A DNA stretch of 40,634 bases from an uncultured Anaerolineae bacterium (GTDB lineage: Bacteria > Chloroflexota > Anaerolineae > VGOG01). The position numbers were made by a program, and so were the translations under genes. Of this stretch, positions 4,441 to 17,248 are shown in pieces (within the stretch, counting starts at the first letter, position 1; each line of letters begins with the position of its first letter). Under the pieces are notes generated by a model. The model was not told the DNA's origin. It was given only the letters and a program-made list of their open reading frames with translations, and searched no databases. The stretch lies in NCBI GenBank assembly GCA_964592085.1, contig CAZQDO010000002.1:1-40634 (forward strand), in the 5' to 3' direction.

Positions 4441-7400
4441 ATGCTCAAAAGCTTGCGCTTTCGATTTACGCTGATCTTCATTGGCTTAGCCATAGGCCCA
4501 TTGATTCTCGTGGGGGCCATCACTGGACAGCGCAGTTTTGCCAGCCTCGAAGGACAGAGCCTGGCATTGCAGCGCGAGATTGCAGCGAGCGTGGGAAGCC
4601 AGGTCAGGGCCTTTGTCGAGGGACGGATGAGCGAGCTCGTTCTTCTCGACAAGGTGTACGGATTAGGAGTGCGTGAACTCGATGAGCAACGGGCGATACT
4701 GAGCAACGTCTTGCTGTATCAGCGGGCCTATCAAGAGGTAGCGCTGCTTAACCTGGAAGGACAGGAGCGAATTCGACTGTCCCGCACCAATGTCATTCTG
4801 GGCGATGATCTCCAGAGCCGGGCTGGAAATACGGAATACCTGTGGCCAGCTACACGTGGCGAGACCTATTTCAGCCCGGTTCGCTTCGACGAAACGATTC
4901 GAGAGCCGCTGATTACGATTTCCGTTCACCTGTTTGACCAGCACAGCGGAGAGGTCGTATCCGTATTGGTGGCCGACTTGAGGTTCAAGAAGATCTGGGA
5001 ACTGCTGGCCATGATTGAATTGGCGGATAAGGGCGATGCCTACGTCGTTGATCAGGCGGGGCGGATCGTCGCGCACAGGAGCCCGACTGTCGTTTTAGGT
5101 GGCACCACGATAGATCTTCCAGAGGCGGATGGCCGTGCAGAGGGCTTGTCTGGAGCGGAGGTCATCGTCGCCAGAGACATCCTTCAGTTTGGCAATCAGG
5201 AGCTTATCGTCCTCGCCGAGCAACCCGTTTCGACCGCCCTCGAACTGGCTGTCAATAGCTTGCGGGTTACGGTGGCTGCCACATCGGTGGCCTTTGGGTT
5301 GGCGGTTATTCTCGTTGTGTTGACGACTCGTCAAATCATCAGGCCGATTGAGACGCTGGCCACCTCTGTGCACGCTATCAGCGACGGTGACTTTTCCCGT
5401 CGAGTGGCAGTTCCCCCGTTCCAGGATGAGATCGCTGACCTGGCGCGCTCTTTCAATTCCATGGCTCGCGCCTTGCAGGAGCGGGAAGAGACGTTACAGG
5501 CGCAGAATGAGGCACTGCAGGCTGAGATTGCCGACCGCAAGCGGGCAGAGGAGGCATTGCGAATCAGTGAAGAGCGGTTTGCCCTGGCCGTGCGCGGCTC
5601 GAATGATGGCTTGTGGGATTGGGACATTCTAAACGACTCGCTCTACTGGTCTCCGCGTTTGAAGGAGTTGCTTGGGTATGCTGAAGATGAACTCGACGTT
5701 GACTTTAGCACGTTTGAATCACATCTGCATCCAGATGACAGAGGGCGCACGAAAGCAGCCATAGAAGCCCATTTGAAGGATCGGGGGCTGTACGACGTCG
5801 AGCAGCGGCTACGCACCAAATCGGGTGAGTATCGTTGCTTCCGTGCCCGGGGCCAGGCGCTTTGGGACGAGGACGGAAATCCCCTTCGCATGGTTGGTTC
5901 CACCACCGATATAACCGAGCGCAAGCGGGTGGAGGAAGAGATCAAAACCAAAAACCAGTTTTTGGAGAGTCTCATCGAGCAATCACCACTTCCAACTTTT
6001 GTGATAGACTCGGGGGGAATTTGCGTGATGGTCAACAAAGCATTTCTGAAGGCCTACCATGTTCCCCAAAAAGAGATGGTTCTGGGACACAATGCTCTAA
6101 CAGAACCTGCGAACGTGCGCCAGGGCGTGGTCAAGTACATGAAGGAGGCTTTGGGCGGGAAAATAGTTGAAACACCCGAAATGGAGTTCTTTTCACCTTA
6201 TGGAAACAAAAGGACGGTGACAAGAAGCAGGTTATTCCCAATATTTGATACAACCAACCAGCTAACCAATGTTGTCGTGATGCATGAGGATGTCACCGAG
6301 CACAAGCGGGTGAAGGAGGCTTTGGGAGAATCTCACGAAAGGTTTCTCACCGTCGTAGACAGTATTGACGCGCACGTTTATGCTGCCGATATGGAGACCT
6401 ATGAGATCCTGTTCATGAATAGGAAGATGCGAGACGACTTCGGCGGCGATCTGGTCGGGAAAATCTGCTGGGATGTGTTCCGTGGCGATTCTAAGCCTTG
6501 TAGTCACTGTACCAATGACAAGCTGATTGACGCTGACGGCAACCCTACGGGAGTACATATCTGGGAAGGACACAACCCAATCACCGAAAGATGGTACATG
6601 AACTATGATCGAGCTATCAAGTGGATTGATGGCCGTCTTGTCCGATTGCAGATCGCCACGGACATCACCGAGCGCAAGCGGGCGGAGGAGGCGCTACGAC
6701 AGTACACTACTCAGTTAGAGGCGCTGCGAGGGATGGGTCTGGAACTGACCTCTCAGTTGGACCTCAACGCTCTCCTCCGCTCCGTCGTCTCGTGGGCCGT
6801 CGAACTGCTGAGGGGCGTCTCTGGCAGCTTCTACCTCTACCGACCGGACCTGGATGCACTGGAGCTGACTGTTTCCATAGGTATCGAGTCGGAGCCTAGC
6901 AATCAGCTCCTCCTCCACCGGGGTGAGGGCCTCTCCGGTAAGGTCCTGGAAACTGGCGAATCGCTCATTGTGGACGACTATCAACACTGGGAGGGGCGGG
7001 CAACCGCGTGGGAGGGCTACTCCTTCACGGCAGTCGTGGCCGTGCCGGTTCGCTGGGGAGATCAGTTCCTGGGGGTGCTGAACGTTGATGCAGATTCCCC
7101 GCACGCCTTCTGTCCGGCGGACATTGAACTGCTGGACTTGTTCGCCACCCAGGCGGCTATCGCCATCCGCAACGCCCGGCTGTACGAGGTGGCTCAGCAA
7201 GAAATAGCCGAGCGCAAGCAAGCAGAGGACAAGCTGAAGGGGTACTCGCAGCGGTTGGAGGAGATGGTGGAGGAGCGCACCCAGGAGCTCCGAGATGCCC
7301 ACGAGCGACTGATGCGCAGGGAGAAACTGGCCATCATGGGCCAACTGGCCGGCGGGGTAGCCCACGAACTGCGCAACCCATTGGGGACGATCTCCAATGC

Positions 7401-9136: not shown

Positions 9137-10561
9137 ATGACGACTGCTTTGTGGTGGGTGCGCCGTGACTTGCGTCTGACGGACAACCAGTCCCTGGCCG
9201 CAGCCTTGACCCACGCCGACCTCGTGATCCCCGTCTTCGTGCTGGATCCGACGCTGCTGAATTCGCCCTACGTCGGGCCGAAGCGGGTGGCCTTCTTGCT
9301 GAGCGGTCTGCGGGCGCTGGACGCTGACCTGCGTATCCGAGGCAGCCGTCTGATCGTCCGCCAGGGCGTGCCCAGGGATGAACTCGCCGCCCTGTTGACC
9401 GAGTGCGGCGCCGGGGCCATCTTTGCCGAGGAGGACTTCTCACCCTACGCTCGGCAGCGCGACAGCGGCGTGGCCGAGCGATTGCCTCTGCACCTGGTCG
9501 GCGCTCCTATCGTCCATCGACCGGGAGCTGTCCTGAAGGCTGACGGTGCGCCCTACACGGTCTTCACGCCCTTTGGCCGCAAGTGGAAGGCCCTTCCGCC
9601 ACCACAAGCGGATGAGATTCTTCCGCCCCCAGATCGGATCCTCACGCCTTCAGGGGTGAACAGCCTGCCCATACCCACCGAACCGGCGCTCTCCCCCGAC
9701 GTGCCTTTTCTGCCAGGCGAAGCGGAAGCTCAACGCCGTCTTGGGGCCTTTGTGGGTGGTGAGGATCCGCCCATCTACCGCTACGCCACGATGCGTGATC
9801 GTCTGGATGTAGATGAGACCTCGCAGCTTTCTCCCTACTTGCGCTTCGGCGTGCTCTCCGCCCGCCAGGCAGTGGTAGCTTCCCTCGATGCGATAGCGGC
9901 GGCCCCTGATGCCGAGGACCGCGAAGGCGCCGAGACCTGGCTCAACGAGCTCATCTGGCGCGAGTTCTTCGTGCACATTCTTTACCACTTCCCCTACGTC
10001 CTGCAACAGAGCTTTCGTGCTGACCTGAGGACGATTCCCTGGGAGAACGCCCCGGGGGACTTCGCTGCCTGGTGTGAAGGGCGCACCGGCTACCCGGTGG
10101 TGGACGCCGCCATGCGACAGTTGGCCCAGACCGGCTGGATGCACAACCGGGCGCGTATGATCGTGGCCTCGTTTCTGGTGAAGCACCTGTTGGTTGACTG
10201 GCGCTGGGGAGAACGCTACTTCATGCAGCACCTGGTGGATGGTGATCCGGCGGCCAACAACGGCGGCTGGCAGTGGACGGCCGGCACCGGCACGGACGCC
10301 GCGCCCTACTTCCGCATCTTCAACCCTGTGTTGCAGGGCAGGAAGTACGACCCCCAGGGCGGCTTCGTGCGCCGTTGGGTGCCCGAGTTGGCCCGCCTGC
10401 CCGACAAGTTCATCCACCAGCCGTGGGAGATGCCCCTTCATGTTCAGCGGGAAGTTGGTTGCATCGTCGGGAAGGACTACCCCGCGCCTATCGTGGATCA
10501 TGCATGGGCACGGGAGCGGGCGTTGGCGACCTATGCACGGGCCAGGGAGGGACATAGATGA
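9137..10561 (+). CDS. phrB: deoxyribodipyrimidine (CPD) photolyase, class I / cryptochrome-photolyase family
   Basis: [13 protein letters not shown] at the N-terminus. The FAD-binding signature is [13 protein letters not shown]...[28 protein letters not shown]...[13 protein letters not shown]. Confidence 0.9.
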
Positions 10562-11212: not shown

Positions 11213-11245
11213 AAAGTAAACAAAACTGAAAGGCGGAGGTTATTG

Positions 11246-12028
11246 ATGAAGAAAGATAATCTGAGACAATGGGTCAATGTGCTGGCAGTGATTGCAGTCA
11301 TTGTGATTAATGGGCTGGCCAACGCCCTGCCGCTCAACGGGCAGACCACCGGCGAAATCTCTGATCGGTTCCAGGTCTACTTCGTGCCGGCTGGCTACGT
11401 GTTCGCCATCTGGGGGCTGATCTACGTGGCACTGATCGCCTTCGCCGTGTACCAGGCGCTGCCTGCCCAGCGGGACAACCCGCGCCTGCGCAGCATCGGC
11501 TATCTGTTCGCCCTGAGTTGTGCGGCCAACATCGCCTGGATCTTTCTCTGGCACTATGAGGTCTTCCCACTGACCCTGGTGGCCATGCTGTCGCTCTTGC
11601 TGCTGCTGATCGCCATCTACTTGCGCCTGGACATCGGCCGCGCTCAGGTTCCTGCAGCCGAGAAGTGGCTGGTGCACATCCCGTTCAGCATTTACCTGGG
11701 CTGGATCACGGTAGCGACCATCGCCAACGTGACCTCGCTCCTGGACTATCTGAACTGGAGCGGGTGGGGCATTAGCCCTGAGGCGTGGACGGTCATCATG
11801 CTGGTCGCCGGTGTCGGCATTGCCTCGGCGGTGAGCCTCACCCGGGGCGACGTGGCCTACATGCTGGTCATCGTGTGGGCCTTCGCGGGCATCGCCGTCA
11901 AGCACGCTGGCACGCCGGTGGTGGCGACCGCCGCCTGGGTGACGACGGCGCTGGCGGCCCTGATGGTGGTGGTGGGTTTCCTTTACAGGAAACGGCTCAA
12001 GGAAAGACTTGGGAAGGGGATGAAATGA
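11246..12028 (+). CDS. TspO/MBR-related tryptophan-rich membrane protein (long form)
   Basis: GGAGGT sits 5 nt before ATG 11246. Multi-pass, Trp/aromatic-rich; NALPLNGQTTGEISDRF...FVPAGYVFAIWGLIY...IAWIFLWHY resembles proteins annotated as tryptophan-rich sensory protein. The assignment is from memory of the family, not a search. Confidence 0.55.
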   Translation: MKKDNLRQWVNVLAVIAVIVINGLANALPLNGQTTGEISDRFQVYFVPAGYVFAIWGLIYVALIAFAVYQALPAQRDNPRLRSIGYLFALSCAANIAWIFLWHYEVFPLTLVAMLSLLLLLIAIYLRLDIGRAQVPAAEKWLVHIPFSIYLGWITVATIANVTSLLDYLNWSGWGISPEAWTVIMLVAGVGIASAVSLTRGDVAYMLVIVWAFAGIAVKHAGTPVVATAAWVTTALAALMVVVGFLYRKRLKERLGKGMK

Positions 12029-12510
12029 GCCAGCGAATTGCATTGAACGTCCAAGCGCCCGGTTTTGCTCTTGAGGATTTTGATGGGCGAACGGTAAGGC
12101 TCTCGGATTACCGTGGGCAGAAACATGTGCTCTTGGTCTTTAACCGTGGCTTCACGTGACCGTTCTGCCGCCGGCACATGGCACAGTTGCGTCAAGACTA
12201 TGAGAAATTCGTGGAAAAGAACGCCGAGGTGATCGTGATCGGCCCGGAAGACAAGGCGACCTATGCTGACTACTGGCAAAGGGAGAACCTGCCCTTCATC
12301 GGTTTGCCCGACCCTCAACACTCCGTGCTGAAACTGTATGGTCAGGAGGTCAACTTGTTCAAACTGGGGCGTATGCCAGCTCAGGTGATCGTGGACTGGG
12401 AGGGTATAGCTCGCTATGTTCACTATGGTCACTCGATGAGCGACATTCCGCCCAATGAAGAACTCCTGGCCCTGCTCGACGAGTTGAATCAGGAAGGGAA
12501 AGCAAAGTGA
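12025..12510 (+). CDS. peroxiredoxin-like / AhpC-TSA (thioredoxin-fold) protein with in-frame TGA at the redox motif: candidate selenoprotein (T-U-P-F-C)
   Basis: Two track ORFs (ending 12159, restarting 12178) share one frame and are separated only by TGA 12157-12159. Read-through gives ...HVLLVFNRGFT-U-PFCRRHMAQLRQDYEKF..., the canonical position of the first Cys of a CxxC/Prx motif. The start overlaps the upstream stop (ATGA) and the stop overlaps the downstream start (GTGA). Confidence 0.6.
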
Positions 12511-13499
12511 TTCCCAACCAATGGTACGTCGTGATGGATCCTGAGCAAGTTAAAGACCGGCCCGTGGGCGTGACGCGCCTGGGCGAAAAGCTGGTCTTCT
12601 GGCGGGATGACACAGGCAAGGTGAGTTGCCTGCGCGACAAATGCGTTCACCGGGGCGTTCAACTCAGCAAGGGCAAGGTGACAGGCGGGTATATCCAGTG
12701 TCCGTTTCATGGCTTCGAGTACGATGCCACTGGTCGCGTCAAGCTCATCCCAGCCAACGGCAAGAATACGCCCGTGCCGGAGCGCTTCAAAGTCCACAGC
12801 TATCCCACCTACGAAAATCACGGCTTCATCTGGATCTGGTGGGGCGAGGAGCCGCCGGACGGCCTCAAGCCGCCGCGTTTCTTCGACGACCTGGACGATA
12901 GCTTCTCCTACGGCAGGGCCTATGACCCCTGGGATGCCCACTATTCCCGCGTCATCGAGAACCAGCTCGACGTGGTGCACCTACCCTTCGTGCACCACAA
13001 CACCATCGGGCGCGGCGGGCGCACGCTGGTGGATGGCCCTGTGGTCCGCTGGATGGATGAGGACATGTTCTTCGTCTACGTCTTCAACCGGGTGGACGAC
13101 GGCACGCCGCCGCGCAGTCCAGAGGAGTTGACGTCCTCGGAGGGCCAAGTGTACCTGGAGTTCATTTTCCCCAACCTGTGGCAGAATCACATCTCGGAAC
13201 AGACGCGCGTTGTGGCCGCCTTCGTGCCGGTGGATGAAGCCCACACCATCCTCTACTTGCGCTTCTACCAGAACTTCGTGCGGCTGCCGCTACTGCGCGA
13301 TCTGTTCAACTGGTTATCCATGCCGTTCAACTTGCTGATCGCTCATCAGGATCGGCGTGTGGTGGTCACGCAGCAACCCAAGCCCTCCGGGCTCAAGATC
13401 GGCGAGAAGCTGATCCAGGGCGACCGGCCCATCGTGGAGTACCGCCGGCGGCGACAAGAACTTCTGGATGAAGTCGCCCGGCCGTCCACGTCGGATTAA
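12507..13499 (+). CDS. Rieske [2Fe-2S] non-heme-iron oxygenase, single-subunit type (PaO/KshA-like architecture)
   Basis: The Rieske motif is CVHRG-x16-CPFHGF. The mononuclear iron motif is ENQLDVVHLPFVHHN (E/D-N-x2-D-x2-H-x4-H). 330 aa with no beta-subunit gene. Confidence 0.8.
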   Translation: MIPNQWYVVMDPEQVKDRPVGVTRLGEKLVFWRDDTGKVSCLRDKCVHRGVQLSKGKVTGGYIQCPFHGFEYDATGRVKLIPANGKNTPVPERFKVHSYPTYENHGFIWIWWGEEPPDGLKPPRFFDDLDDSFSYGRAYDPWDAHYSRVIENQLDVVHLPFVHHNTIGRGGRTLVDGPVVRWMDEDMFFVYVFNRVDDGTPPRSPEELTSSEGQVYLEFIFPNLWQNHISEQTRVVAAFVPVDEAHTILYLRFYQNFVRLPLLRDLFNWLSMPFNLLIAHQDRRVVVTQQPKPSGLKIGEKLIQGDRPIVEYRRRRQELLDEVARPSTSD

Positions 13500-13634: not shown

Positions 13635-14846
13635 ATGGATGTAAGAAGACGTCTTGCTTTGCTCTTCGCTTTTGTTTTTGTTGACGTACTCGGTTTCAGC
13701 CTGATCCTGCCGCTGTTGCCCTACTACGCCGAGACCTTTGGGGCCACACCTACCCTCGTTGGGCTGTTGCTGGGCGCCAACGCGGCAGCCCAATTCATCG
13801 GGGCGCCGATCATCGGGCGACTCTCTGACCGCTACGGGCGGCGGCCCTTGTTGATCCTCAGCATCGCTGGCACGGTGGTCAGCTTTGTGATACTTGGCCT
13901 GGCGAACTCGTTGGAGATGCTTTTCGCCAGCCGCATCCTGGACGGACTTCTGGGAGGCAACGTCTCGCTGGCCCAGGCCTACATTACCGACGTGACCGAC
14001 GACAAGAACCGGGCCAGGGGACTGGGTCTCATCGGAGCCGCCTTCGGTCTGGGGTTCATCTTTGGCCCAGCGTTGGGCGGTGCGCTCAGCACCGGGGGAA
14101 ACTACAGTTTGCCTGCCTTCGTGGCCGCTGGCTTGTCGGCCCTCAACTTGTTGGGCGTGCTCATCTGGCTGCCGGAGTCGCTGCCCCCAGAAAGACGCGC
14201 CCAAATGGCCAGTCACCCTCGTACCGCGTTCACAGCTCGCGCGTTGCGGGAAGCGTTGCGTCGTCCCTGCGTTGGCCCACTGTTGCAGGTGACCCTCTTC
14301 TACGGCCTGGCCTTCACCATCTTTCAGACCATCTTTACGCTCTTCGCTGAAAGACGGTTGAGCCTGGACTCGCGAGCCGTGGGCTATGTGTTCACCTACG
14401 TGGGTTTGCTTATCGTGGCTATACAGGGCGGTGGGATGGGACTCCTGACCAAACGCTTCAGCGAAAAGCATCTCATCTTCGGTGGAACGATCCTTCTGAC
14501 CTTTTCGTTGTTAGCGTGGGCACTGACCCCGACGCTGTGGCTGTTGTTGCTGGTGCTGGCCCCGCTGTCCCTGGCCAGCGGCGTGCTCAGGGTTTCCATC
14601 AACAGCGCGCTGACCAAATCGGTCTATCCGGAGGAGGTGGGGGGGACATTGGGCATGTCCGCTTCACTGGAGAGTCTGACGCGGGTCGTGTCGCCCATTG
14701 TGGGTGGGTTCCTGCTTGATAATCTGGGAACGGCGGCCCCAGGCATTGCGGGTGCCCTGCTCATGAGTTTGCTGATTCCCTTCGTGTGGAGGCGGGTGCT
14801 TTTCGTGCCGGATTTGGTATGCCCTGAGCCGATATTAGAGGGATAA
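13635..14846 (+). CDS. MFS transporter (drug:H+ antiporter / Tet-like, 12 TM)
   Basis: ATG 13635 gives MDVRRRLALLFAFVFVDVLGFSLILPLLPYY. MFS motif A is GRLSDRYGRRPLL. The upstream ORF extension (13548) runs through the palindromes and is rejected. Confidence 0.8.
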   Translation: MDVRRRLALLFAFVFVDVLGFSLILPLLPYYAETFGATPTLVGLLLGANAAAQFIGAPIIGRLSDRYGRRPLLILSIAGTVVSFVILGLANSLEMLFASRILDGLLGGNVSLAQAYITDVTDDKNRARGLGLIGAAFGLGFIFGPALGGALSTGGNYSLPAFVAAGLSALNLLGVLIWLPESLPPERRAQMASHPRTAFTARALREALRRPCVGPLLQVTLFYGLAFTIFQTIFTLFAERRLSLDSRAVGYVFTYVGLLIVAIQGGGMGLLTKRFSEKHLIFGGTILLTFSLLAWALTPTLWLLLLVLAPLSLASGVLRVSINSALTKSVYPEEVGGTLGMSASLESLTRVVSPIVGGFLLDNLGTAAPGIAGALLMSLLIPFVWRRVLFVPDLVCPEPILEG

Positions 14847-14927
14847 GGAGGATCCTATAAGACATGGACGCATTATCTTAGCCCAGGAACTTGAATGAGA
14901 CCGACTATCGAGAAAGGAGGAATTGAA

Positions 14928-15698
14928 ATGAACAATGAGCGGACTTTTACAGGGTTGCGCAGATTTAACGCAGCGATGGGTTTGCTCCACCTGGTGCAGG
15001 GGATCCTGATGATCGTTCTCAGCAACGATACCACCTATCCCATCACCACCGCCTACCTCAAGTTCGATTTCGAGAACTTCAAACTGACCTCGAATCTTCA
15101 GGAGACGGGAGAGCTGTTGTTTGGCCCGGCTGTCGCGGTGTTCCTGCTACTCTCGGCCGTGGCGCACTTCAGCCTGTCCACCTTCGGCTACAAGTGGTAC
15201 GTGAGGAATCTCAAGAAGGGCATGAACCCCGCCCGCTTCTACGAGTACGCCCTCAGTTCGTCGCTGATGATCGTCTTGATAGCCATGCTGGTAGGCATGT
15301 ACGACCTGCCCAGCCTGATCCTGATCTTCTCGCTGAACGCCATGATGAATCTGTTCGGCCACATGATGGAACTGCACAACCAGACAACGCCTCGCACCAA
15401 CTGGACGGCCTTCATCTACGGCTGTATCGCCGGGATCGTGCCGTGGATTACGATTGTGATGTATTTGGTTGGCGCGGCCCAATCGGTGGATGCCAAGCCG
15501 CCAGCGTTCGTATACGCCATCATCGCCTCCATCTTCGTGTTCTTCAACATCTTCGCGGTCAACATGTTCTTGCAGTACAAGAAGGTTGGCCCGTGGAAGA
15601 ACTACCTGTTTGGAGAGCGGATGTTCATCGTGCTGAGCCTGGTCGCCAAGACGGCCCTGGCCTGGCAGATATTCGCTGGCACCTTGGCCCCTGTTTAA
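14928..15698 (+). CDS. heliorhodopsin (inverted-topology type-1-like rhodopsin)
   Basis: AGGAGG sits 7 nt before ATG 14928. By eye it aligns along its whole length with the heliorhodopsin 48C12 sequence as I remember it. Matching segments are FNAAMGLLHLVQ, AVAHFS, RFYEYALSSSLMIVLIA (counterion Glu), YGCIAGIVPW, FVYAII.SIFVFFN, LQYKK.G.W.NYL.GER..IVLSLVAKTALAWQIFAGTL (Schiff-base Lys). Confidence 0.9.
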   Translation: MNNERTFTGLRRFNAAMGLLHLVQGILMIVLSNDTTYPITTAYLKFDFENFKLTSNLQETGELLFGPAVAVFLLLSAVAHFSLSTFGYKWYVRNLKKGMNPARFYEYALSSSLMIVLIAMLVGMYDLPSLILIFSLNAMMNLFGHMMELHNQTTPRTNWTAFIYGCIAGIVPWITIVMYLVGAAQSVDAKPPAFVYAIIASIFVFFNIFAVNMFLQYKKVGPWKNYLFGERMFIVLSLVAKTALAWQIFAGTLAPV

Positions 15699-15710: not shown

Positions 15711-16187
15711 ATGAGCCGCTTGAGGCCTGACAAATTGCACGTCCGGTTTGCTGCCGGGGCAAGCCCAGACGGGCCGAGCACTCCCCGCCACTACACCCTG
15801 ACCCACTCCGACGCGACGGGGGACCTGTATCTCACCATCGGGCCGGACTACGACCGCCGGCAGATCTCAGGGTGGTATACCCGCTTAATGCGAGACGAGG
15901 TGCTGGCCGAGTGGCGGCAAGAGAAGGATGGCCCAGCCCTCCACGTTCACTGTCACGTGAGCGGTGGGTTGGTGATCGGCTCGGCTGGCTGGCGATATGC
16001 CATCTTCCAAAGAGAGTTGCCGCTGGTGTTGGAGGCCTTTCGCTTTGGCGACCGGCGGCTCTTTGAGATCGAGCCTGGGCTGGATCGGGCGCCCATTTGG
16101 GTGCATTTCCACGCCGCACAGCTTGGCTACAATAAGACCGAGTCGTGGGGCGTTCCCGCCGATTACCCTGAGAGGGGAGAGGCGTGA
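15711..16187 (+). CDS. Staygreen (SGR) family protein, Mg-dechelatase homologue
   Basis: Starts 12 nt after the heliorhodopsin stop. PRHYTLTHSD, GWYTRLMRDEVLAEW, LHVHCHVSGG, IFQRELPLVLEAF, IWVHFH and ESWG match the conserved SGR-domain blocks of plant SGR1 and bacterial homologues. Confidence 0.85.
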   Translation: MSRLRPDKLHVRFAAGASPDGPSTPRHYTLTHSDATGDLYLTIGPDYDRRQISGWYTRLMRDEVLAEWRQEKDGPALHVHCHVSGGLVIGSAGWRYAIFQRELPLVLEAFRFGDRRLFEIEPGLDRAPIWVHFHAAQLGYNKTESWGVPADYPERGEA

Positions 16188-17248
16188 GGCATTGGATGTT
16201 TGTTTGCCTTATCGTGGTCGTGGTGTTGCTGGTCATTCTGTTGGTCGGCCCCTTGGTGATCCCCTTGCCTCCGCTGGAGGGCGCTGTGCCGCCGCAGAAG
16301 TTGGCCGATCCCGACAGCCGTTTCGTTGACATAAACGGCCTACAAGTGCACTACAAGATGGCGGGCCAGGGTGAGCCTACGGCGGAAAACCTCGCGTTGG
16401 TGCTGCTGCACGGCTTCGCTGCCAGCGTCTTCTCCTGGCGCGAAGTCATGGATCCGCTGTCCGAAATCGGCACGGTGATGGCCTTCGACCGGCCCGCCTT
16501 CGGCCTGACCGAGCGCCCCCTGCCGGGCGAGTGGGTGGGTGAGAGCCCCTACGGTGCCGAGGCACAGATAGAGTTGACCGTTGGCTTGCTGGACGAGCTG
16601 GGGTTGGATCGGGCGATTCTGGTGGGCAACTCCGCTGGAGGCACCATCGCTATGCTCACGGCCTTGACCTATCCAGAGCGGGTGCAGGCTTTGGTGCTGG
16701 CGGATCCCGCCGTCTATGCCCACGGTGGCTGGATGGGCCTCGCCCGTTTCTTCGCCAACACGCCGCAGACGCAACGAATTGGGCCGCTGTTAGTTCGGAG
16801 GATCCGCGCCTGGGGGATGGACTTCGCTCGCTCTGCCTGGCACGATCCGTCGAAGATCACAGCCGAGGTTTGGGAGGGATACCTGAAGCCGCTACGGGCG
16901 GAGAACTGGGATCGGGGCCTATGGGAGTGGGTTCGCGCCAGCCAGTCCCACGATTTGGCGGAGCGGCTGGCTGAGATTCGGATGCCCTGCCTGGTCATCA
17001 CCGGCGACGATGACCGCATCGTGCCGGCGGAGCAGAGCGTCCGTCTGGCCGGTGAGCTGCCTGACGCCGAATTGGTGGTCATCCCAGACTGCGGCCACAT
17101 TCCCCACGAGGAGTGCCCGGAGGCGTTTTTGCAGGCAGTGGCCGATTTCTTGGACAAGCTGCCAACTGCTCACCCTCCCGCAGGTTTGGTCGGTGGTATC
17201 GGGCAAAACGTTAACTTCGGGCAAATATCCGGGCACCCTGTCCGATAA
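16184..17248 (+). CDS. membrane-anchored alpha/beta-hydrolase (serine esterase; pheophytinase/MhpC-like fold)
   Basis: GTG 16184 overlaps the SGR stop (GTGA); the alternative ATG is 16196. N-terminal TM helix (FVCLIVVVVLLVILLVGPLV), LLHGFAAS oxyanion region, GNSAGG nucleophile elbow and DCGHIPHEE catalytic His. The last ~29 codons (from ~17160) are encoded by MITE copy 2. Confidence 0.8.
   Translation: MRHWMFVCLIVVVVLLVILLVGPLVIPLPPLEGAVPPQKLADPDSRFVDINGLQVHYKMAGQGEPTAENLALVLLHGFAASVFSWREVMDPLSEIGTVMAFDRPAFGLTERPLPGEWVGESPYGAEAQIELTVGLLDELGLDRAILVGNSAGGTIAMLTALTYPERVQALVLADPAVYAHGGWMGLARFFANTPQTQRIGPLLVRRIRAWGMDFARSAWHDPSKITAEVWEGYLKPLRAENWDRGLWEWVRASQSHDLAERLAEIRMPCLVITGDDDRIVPAEQSVRLAGELPDAELVVIPDCGHIPHEECPEAFLQAVADFLDKLPTAHPPAGLVGGIGQNVNFGQISGHPVR

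Follow-up and report, generated by a model that had tools for sequence, protein, structure and literature searches.

A predicted UxxC selenoprotein with a peroxiredoxin-like fold in Anaerolineae and a short candidate SECIS hairpin in its coding sequence

Introduction

Peroxiredoxin-like (Prx-like) proteins carrying selenocysteine (Sec, U) in a UxxC motif are an established bacterial selenoprotein family, known since 2004-2005 (PMC1088965, PMC1794560, PMC13188914). Those with domain PF00578 are described as thiol:disulfide oxidoreductases with UxxC or UxxU motifs, 'predicted with high confidence', with WP_010940744.1 as the reference (PMC13188914). An earlier reading of the DNA studied here (the original prediction) had invoked Prx-like UxxC proteins as a recurrent selenoprotein family, in agreement with this literature (PMC1088965, PMC13188914). 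We analysed a stretch of 40,634 nucleotides (the window: positions 1 to 40,634 of contig CAZQDO010000002.1, assembly GCA_964592085.1, from an uncultured Anaerolineae bacterium of the Chloroflexota), in which a gene at 12025-12510 is interrupted by a single in-frame TGA. Our analysis indicates that this gene very probably encodes a Sec-decoded thiol-redox selenoprotein of the UxxC type, with a candidate selenocysteine insertion sequence (SECIS) at 12179-12194.

The SECIS of Escherichia coli fdhF presents its GU at +23/+24. The candidate described here resembles the fdhF-type element in being a coding-region hairpin 3' of the UGA that exposes a G and a U in a small loop; it differs in being much shorter (16 nt), with the GU at +30/+31 and no bulged U seen. 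In the bacterial SECIS (bSECIS) model, a loop of 3-9 nt on a stem of 4-16 bp lies 16-37 nt from the UGA with a minimum free energy (MFE) of -7.5 kcal/mol or lower, and loop position 1 or 2 is a G, usually with G or U next to it on the 3' side (PMC13188914).

At the protein level, the closest described system is the group of Prx-like UxxC selenoproteins, which the present protein resembles in domain and motif. Both have PF00578 and homologues with Cys. In both, Sec opens a thioredoxin-like UxxC, unlike true Sec-peroxiredoxins with their TxxU, and the coding region contains a stem-loop whose small apical loop has a G. The present clade is essentially confined to Chloroflexota/Anaerolineae. SelL has a UxxU motif. 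SelL and SelL-related proteins (NF040769) have a Prx-like fold with the redox motif in the same place, and the present protein differs from them in its UxxC motif and its sub-cut-off score. The closest solved folds are those of BCP/PrxQ and AhpE-type peroxiredoxins, whose PxxxTxxC signature is absent from the present protein. ResA and TlpA are membrane-anchored and extracytoplasmic. The WCPHC of ResA lines up position by position with the motif described here. The present protein starts directly with the domain.

Results

A Prx-like gene with one internal stop codon

On the plus strand, the frame 12025-12510 reads MSQRIALNVQAPGFALEDFDGRTVRLSDYRGQKHVLLVFNRGFT up to the TGA at codon 45, the sole internal stop, and continues as PFCRRHMAQLRQDYEKF...GKAK to the terminal stop. 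The original prediction had joined two open reading frames (ORFs), one ending at 12159 and the next restarting at ATG 12178, into one peroxiredoxin-like gene with a 161-residue product. Translation confirmed that the two ORFs are in the same frame, that TGA 12157-12159 is the only interruption and that read-through gives VLLVFNRGFT-U-PFC; the motif with UGA read as Sec is VLLVFNRGFT-U-PFC-RRHMAQLR. The proposed identity agreed with the domain searches. With Cys substituted for Sec, the read-through protein matched the Pfam families AhpC-TSA (PF00578, 3e-23, 82.5 bits against a cut-off of 26) and Redoxin (2e-18), the match ran across the TGA, and the motif was of the UxxC and not the TxxU type. 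The best NCBIfam model was NF040769, SelL-related redox protein (4e-22); the score of 78.6 bits lies below the NCBI membership cut-off of 120, and the match covers only positions 3-99 of the 173 in the model. A scan of the window for another ORF divided by a TGA gave only the off-frame noise typical of G+C-rich DNA.

The neighbour overlaps noted previously were both present. At ATGA 12025-12028, the start codon overlaps the stop codon (12026-12028) of an upstream 261-residue ORF, and at GTGA 12507-12510 the stop codon overlaps the GTG start (12507) of a downstream 330-residue ORF. The gene is translationally coupled to both neighbours through these overlapping start and stop codons.

Conservation of the TGA and coding constraint on both sides

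Scanning one genome per species with tblastn, we found more than 586 relatives and kept the best 80 as loci. Each of the 80 is a different species' representative, spans the full gene length and is 64-87% identical in amino acid sequence; most come from metagenome-assembled genomes (MAGs) of Chloroflexota/Anaerolineae, and the isolates Longilinea arvoryzae KOME-1 and Leptolinea sp. HRD-7 are included. The aligned codon was TGA in all 80 of these best loci, and also in three of three of the closest metagenomic copies (89-98% identity). Because a stop codon lowers the tblastn score, Cys forms were not disfavoured by this ranking.

Conservation-like sequence had been noted on both sides of the TGA, and the coding constraint agreed with this. 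Over all pairs, the ratio of the proportions of nonsynonymous (pN) and synonymous (pS) differences was 0.36 in the 40 codons upstream (pN 0.26, pS 0.73, synonymous sites saturated) and 0.27 in the 100 codons downstream (pN 0.19, pS 0.70). No other stop codon occurred in the 40 codons before the TGA in 79 of 80 sequences (the window and 79 loci). Purifying selection thus acts on both halves in one frame, which excludes a pseudogene or a split by chance, in keeping with the earlier view that the gene is not dead.

A split gene would yield a 44-residue N-terminal peptide and a 110-residue product from ATG 12178. An ATG does lie 7 codons past the TGA, and gene callers and GenBank list only the C-terminal piece of 107-111 residues (GAP15703.1, BCY16685.1). 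A nonsense mutation, however, is not expected to be kept in 80 of 80 species at saturated synonymous divergence, nor the upstream 40 codons to be under purifying selection; in loci L086 and L087 the restart codon is CTG while the TGA is still there, and the 110-residue piece would, as modelled, be without both the active-site motif and the opening strands of the fold. We therefore regard a pseudogene or split gene as highly improbable.

In one locus, L009 (10124 region), a further in-frame TGA lies 15 codons ahead of the Sec codon, where the window has Arg CGT.

Cys homologues and misannotation of the TGA

In the protein search, the closest relatives (73-100% identity) were fragments of 104-117 residues starting at the Met of MAQLR, and full-length homologues (55-68% identity) had C, W, R or L at the Sec site. 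Among the 120 nearest protein clusters, 77 had W at the site, 10 had Cys, 2 had Arg and 1 had Leu; 24 were truncated. Alignment thus bore out the proposal that the Sec position corresponds to a Cys of orthologues, the Cys being found in a minority of homologues.

Four Cys forms were compared at the DNA level. The codon was TGT in L088, L090 and L091 and TGC in L089. The downstream hairpin described below was intact or nearly so in L089, L090 and L091, which implies recent conversion from Sec to Cys; in the more diverged L088 it had been lost by the synonymous changes TTG>TTA, CGC>CGG and TGC>TGT. 'Remnant SECIS' cases in Cys forms have been described (PMC1794560). In this small sample, the sequence comparison appears to run in the expected direction, with the hairpin decaying after the loss of Sec. 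Two further loci have single-base variants of TGA with the hairpin retained: L092 (CGA, with the upstream frame lost) and L093 (TTA). Together with L009, these are probably dead or erroneous copies.

In GenBank, the gene is cut to a 'peroxiredoxin', 'redoxin domain-containing protein' or 'hypothetical protein' of 108-111 residues. GAP15703.1 from Longilinea arvoryzae is a 111-residue 'peroxiredoxin' and BCY16685.1 from Leptolinea sp. HRD-7 a 108-residue 'hypothetical protein'; both (loci L068 and L030) start at the Met after the TGA. The W residues are apparently gene-caller artefacts produced by a code in which UGA means Trp. The contigs of three database proteins with W at the site (P0003, P0008 and P0054) were checked and all three have TGA. 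At L094, a true terminal TGA was likewise read as W, giving a false tail of 47 residues. The active-site residue is thus apparently wrong in 77 of the 120 nearest database proteins, public metagenome gene calls having rendered the Sec TGA as Trp.

These annotations bear on whether the UGA might be read without Sec machinery, through a reassigned code (Trp or Gly) or near-cognate read-through as Trp or Cys, or might be a sequencing error for TGC or TGT. The prevalence of W in the databases would favour such a reading, and in E. coli a UGA followed by C is leaky as a stop. Yet the W is accounted for by gene calling and would make no functional sense at a redox Cys position; TGA is an ordinary stop in the window, ending 15 of the 27 confident genes including the Sec gene itself and its upstream neighbour; 80 independent assemblies cannot all share one sequencing error; and simple read-through needs no dedicated conserved hairpin. 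A reading of the UGA without Sec is extremely unlikely.

A conserved hairpin downstream of the TGA

The loci aligned over the 60 nt from the TGA gave a single consensus structure with RNAalifold, the hairpin at 12179-12194. The family consensus is U-GGCGC-AGUU-GCGCC-A, a stem of 6 bp (U-A, G-C, G-C, C-G, G-C and C-G) closed by an AGUU loop that contains G12186 and U12187. It starts 19 nt past the UGA with the loop 25 nt past the UGA; 98.5% of cells were paired, the mean ensemble pair probability was 0.71 and the consensus energy was -10.8 kcal/mol. In loop length (4), stem length (6), loop sequence (AGUU), spacing (25 nt) and energy, the consensus agrees with the bSECIS model throughout.

Where the amino acid is conserved, synonymous-codon entropy was close to maximal in all columns except codons +8 to +11, where it was about 0, and codons +2/+3. 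Codons +8 to +11, within the hairpin, were fixed as Ala GCG (75/77), Gln CAG (80/80), Leu TTG (80/80) and Arg CGC or CGT (80/80), whereas in the genes of the window TTG makes up 18% of Leu codons and GCG 24% of Ala codons. The second frozen stretch, UUCUGCC (codons +2/+3), lies outside the stable hairpin and pairs weakly with its 5' arm.

The original prediction had drawn a different hairpin, in which 12162-12169 pairs with 12180-12187. It can be drawn as proposed, with a C/C mismatch and a 10-nt loop, and it is pairable in 94.9% of cells; as a conserved element it did not hold up. Its pair probability was 0.01 and its energy -0.6 kcal/mol in the family consensus and -0.2 kcal/mol in the window, and we rejected it as the SECIS. 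Its loop is accordingly not the SECIS apical loop, the conserved signal being the hairpin at 12179-12194. The two structures are mutually exclusive: bases 12180-12184 are common to both, and the 3' arm of the earlier hairpin serves as the 5' arm of the conserved one. Because its 5' arm, UUCUGCC, is synonymous-frozen, we keep the earlier hairpin as a possible competing helix.

Judged by these sequence comparisons, it is almost certain that the in-frame TGA is a genuine Sec codon. TGA conservation, purifying selection, Cys homologues and a hairpin that fits the SECIS model all support the proposal of a Sec codon at the first position of UxxC in a Prx-like protein with a thioredoxin fold.

The window copy of the hairpin and the search for Sec machinery

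Several results weigh against this interpretation. The stem showed near-absent covariation because it is invariant: one compensatory cell was found, not above shuffles, in a test to which an invariant stem gives no power. The variants seen were one compensatory A-U pair (L042) and ten G.U pairs. With a powerless covariation test, the argument for the hairpin rests on synonymous-site constraint. Rfam gave no match in the window, either at the gathering threshold or at E <= 10. In the window and the flanks of the 80 loci (about 1.2 Mb), ARAGORN found no tRNA-Sec and tblastn with E. coli SelA, SelB and SelD gave only weak GTPase matches. In the window itself, the hairpin at 12179-12194 is neither the MFE structure nor present in the ensemble; when forced, it reaches -5.2 kcal/mol compared with -10.8 kcal/mol for the consensus, so that taken alone it falls short of the -7.5 kcal/mol of the model.

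The window copy, UGGCAC AGUU GCGUCA, has two synonymous differences from the consensus (Table 1). In loop, stem, G and spacing it agrees with the bSECIS model, and its weaker energy is due to G12183A. The nearest relatives L083, L084, L085 and L001 have G at the equivalent position, and L052 has acquired the same change independently. G12183A may reflect a polymorphism, a fault of assembly or a slight weakening of the SECIS, and we treat it as a caveat on the window copy, not as evidence against the family-level conclusion.

The family may be a selenoprotein of which the window copy is impaired or decaying, with G12183A weakening the SECIS, Sec insertion being inefficient and translation mostly terminating at 12159. 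The rarity of the change (2 of 81 sequences), the G of the nearest relatives, the low forced energy and the absence of the hairpin from the MFE structure and ensemble all point that way. Against it, this is a single synonymous change that has also arisen in L052, further lesions are lacking, the frame is intact on both sides and the overlap coupling is kept; this copy can also fold into another hairpin, of 38 nt and -11 kcal/mol, and G12183A could be an assembly error. We consider an impaired window copy improbable, and prefer a functional Sec codon in the window as in the rest of the family.

The 38-nt hairpin, which starts from the UGA, is the MFE structure of the window copy and occurs in L001 too, was rejected as the signal itself. 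It is not conserved in L083, which is 98% identical, and its loop lies 14 nt from the UGA, below the bSECIS minimum of 16. Folding 12157-12220 as a single sequence was uninformative (z-score -0.38), and Rfam gave only chance matches on L007, which carries the consensus hairpin.

That the window has no visible sel genes had been stated before, and the ARAGORN and tblastn searches agree; tRNA genes of any kind are absent from the window. Chloroflexi are reported to have the Sec-decoding trait (PMC5322559, PMC1794560), and tRNA-Sec has been reported from them (PMC5389517). Anaerolineales single-cell genomes contain SelB and Sec-containing formate dehydrogenases, and Anaerolinea thermophila encodes SelB with no annotated Sec dehydrogenase (PMC4959059). 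This literature supports Sec machinery at the level of the order, not of this particular genome.

Independently, Sec decoding is favoured by two unrelated ORFs in the flanks of family loci. In each, an in-frame TGA lies within a Cys-containing motif and a hairpin with a G[GU] loop comes after it. In L016, from an Anaerolineae MAG, L016:13897-14985 (+) encodes a 362-residue membrane-anchored AhpC/TSA protein (Pfam 3e-27), a candidate selenoprotein with TGA at 14659-14661 and the motif FFQRCG-U-GPDR; the hairpin GCAGCUCGUCGAGCUGC begins about 14 nt past the UGA, with the loop 20 nt past it. The L040 candidate selenoprotein (minus strand, plus coordinates 4892-5410) is of the DUF1573 type (3.6e-7), weakly similar to the NCBIfam OS_HP2 (seleno)protein, with the motif VVEGC-U-PPTP and the hairpin GACCAUCGGUUCGAUGGUC about 11 nt past the UGA, the loop lying 18 nt past it.

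Fold, active site and proposed mechanism

An AlphaFold2 model of the Cys homologue P0016, which is 63% identical to the window protein, had a predicted local distance difference test (pLDDT) score of 92.4. Compared with the PDB, it was closest to Bcp1, Bcp4 and AhpE (3drn, 3hjp and 1xvw; template modelling scores 0.83-0.88). In the model, residue 46 begins the first long helix, so that residue 45 (Sec in the window protein) forms its N-cap and Cys48 falls within its first turn. Arg116 is invariant in two protein alignments. The Pfam match runs from residue 9 and leaves no room for a signal peptide or anchor; the protein is therefore expected to be cytoplasmic.

The original prediction had the TGA replacing the first Cys of a CxxC/Prx active site. 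For the CxxC motif of the ResA/TlpA type this holds: UPFC aligns with ResA WCPHC, whose nucleophilic N-terminal Cys is matched by U. As the catalytic Cys of a peroxiredoxin, Sec does not fit. A strict alignment to peroxiredoxins puts U at the Thr of TxxC, so that Sec or Cys occupies the Thr position (-3) of the signature, and it is Cys48 that falls on the peroxidatic Cys of archaeal Bcp/Prx. The PxxxTxxC signature itself is replaced by R41-G-F-T-U45-P-F-C48, with an invariant Arg at the Pro position (-7), so the chemistry is more likely of the CxxC type. The UxxC selenenylsulfide couple would most likely make the protein a thiol-disulfide oxidoreductase or else an atypical peroxidase.

From the conserved TGA and hairpin, the constraint on the sequence around them, the Cys homologues and the fold, we infer how the codon may be decoded and what the product may do. 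SelB and Sec-tRNA(Sec) would decode UGA 12157-12159 as Sec, SelB being recruited by the coding-sequence hairpin through its 6-bp G+C-rich stem and the G and U presented in the AGUU loop. The region 12025-12510 would then encode one 161-residue cytoplasmic thiol-redox selenoprotein of the AhpC/TSA (Prx-like) fold. Sec45 and Cys48 would make up the UxxC centre, at the N-terminal end of the first helix, cycling between selenolate/thiol and selenenylsulfide while reducing a disulfide, sulfenate or peroxide substrate in a physiological role that may be connected with the gene context described below.

Gene neighbourhood

In the window, the gene order is TruD, photolyase, exonuclease, TspO/MBR-like, Sec gene, Rieske/VanA_C oxygenase, major facilitator superfamily (MFS) transporter, heliorhodopsin, Staygreen and alpha/beta hydrolase (Table 1). 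Homologues of the neighbours recur in shuffled order among related loci. A Rieske oxygenase lies directly downstream of the family gene in L005 too, and a heliorhodopsin gene directly upstream of the Cys form L088. Naive ORF clustering within +/-4 kb gave no universal neighbour gene; distant members have other neighbours, and the set of light-stress genes is common to the wider clade of the window only.

Table 1. Coordinates of the Sec gene, its elements and its neighbours in the window, with the number of loci in which a homologue of a neighbour lies within 3.5 kb (<=3.5 kb) of the family gene
Feature	Position	Strand	Description	Loci with homologue
Complete candidate selenoprotein gene	12025..12510	+	161 codons plus stop; AhpC/TSA (Prx-like) fold	
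In-frame TGA	12157..12159	+	Proposed Sec codon (residue 45)	
Redox motif U-P-F-C	12157..12168	+	Sec45, Pro46, Phe47, Cys48	
UUCUGCC	12163..12169	+	Second synonymous-frozen stretch (codons +2/+3); TTC 67/71, TGC 80/80	
Candidate SECIS hairpin	12179..12194	+	nt +23 to +38 from U of UGA	
G>A (GCG>GCA)	12183	+	A.C mismatch in hairpin; G in 79/81 sequences	
C>U (CGC>CGT)	12192	+	G-C pair to G.U; U in 10/81 sequences, common to the sub-clade of the window	
Photolyase	9137-10561		1.5 kb upstream of Sec gene	4
TspO/MBR-like membrane protein	11243..12028	+	Upstream, overlapping; Pfam PF03073, 3e-05, 24.2 bits at cut-off 24	10
Rieske [2Fe-2S] oxygenase	12507..13499	+	Downstream, overlapping; VanA_C-type catalytic domain; Rieske 8e-25, VanA_C 8e-17	
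MFS transporter				5
Heliorhodopsin	14895-15698	+	Pfam PF18761, 2e-101; 2.4 kb downstream of Sec gene	6
Staygreen (Mg-dechelatase family)	15711-16187		5e-49	4
Alpha/beta hydrolase	16184-17248			14

Discussion

The kind of protein described here is already known: UxxC Prx-like selenoproteins have been catalogued, exchange between Sec and Cys in evolution is textbook knowledge, and nothing in the present family is conceptually new. What is new is the clade, which is Chloroflexota-wide, has predominantly Sec over Cys and lies below the NCBIfam cut-offs. In a 2006 census, three selenoproteins were counted for the phylum Chloroflexi (PMC1794560). A widespread predicted selenoprotein, found in at least 80 species-level genomes including two cultured isolates, would be added to a phylum with few recorded. 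It may provide one candidate answer to the presence of SelB without an annotated Sec enzyme in Anaerolinea thermophila (PMC4959059). The family also exposes a systematic database error, in which the active-site residue is cut away or written as Trp, and its 16-nt hairpin is an unusually clean, minimal SECIS candidate.

The gene context suggests a role in defence against light or photo-oxidative stress. An enrichment of redox and oxidative-stress genes, peroxiredoxin among them, has been reported for the neighbourhoods of heliorhodopsin (PMC8612252). A more specific idea is that the selenoprotein is a dedicated part of a light/photo-oxidative-stress module of non-phototrophic Anaerolineae, functionally coupled to heliorhodopsin, photolyase, the TspO-like tetrapyrrole-binding protein, the Staygreen homologue and the Rieske oxygenase, and one of the 'missing' selenoproteins that would explain why SelB is kept. 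We regard this idea as rather doubtful; if it were true, the protein might serve the oxygenase as reductant or repair enzyme, or might act in this way on damage by photosensitising tetrapyrroles.

As a separate observation, the TspO/MBR-like, Rieske/VanA_C, Staygreen and alpha/beta hydrolase genes occur together on the contig of an apparently non-phototrophic member of the Chloroflexota, and they recall enzymes of tetrapyrrole/chlorophyll breakdown.

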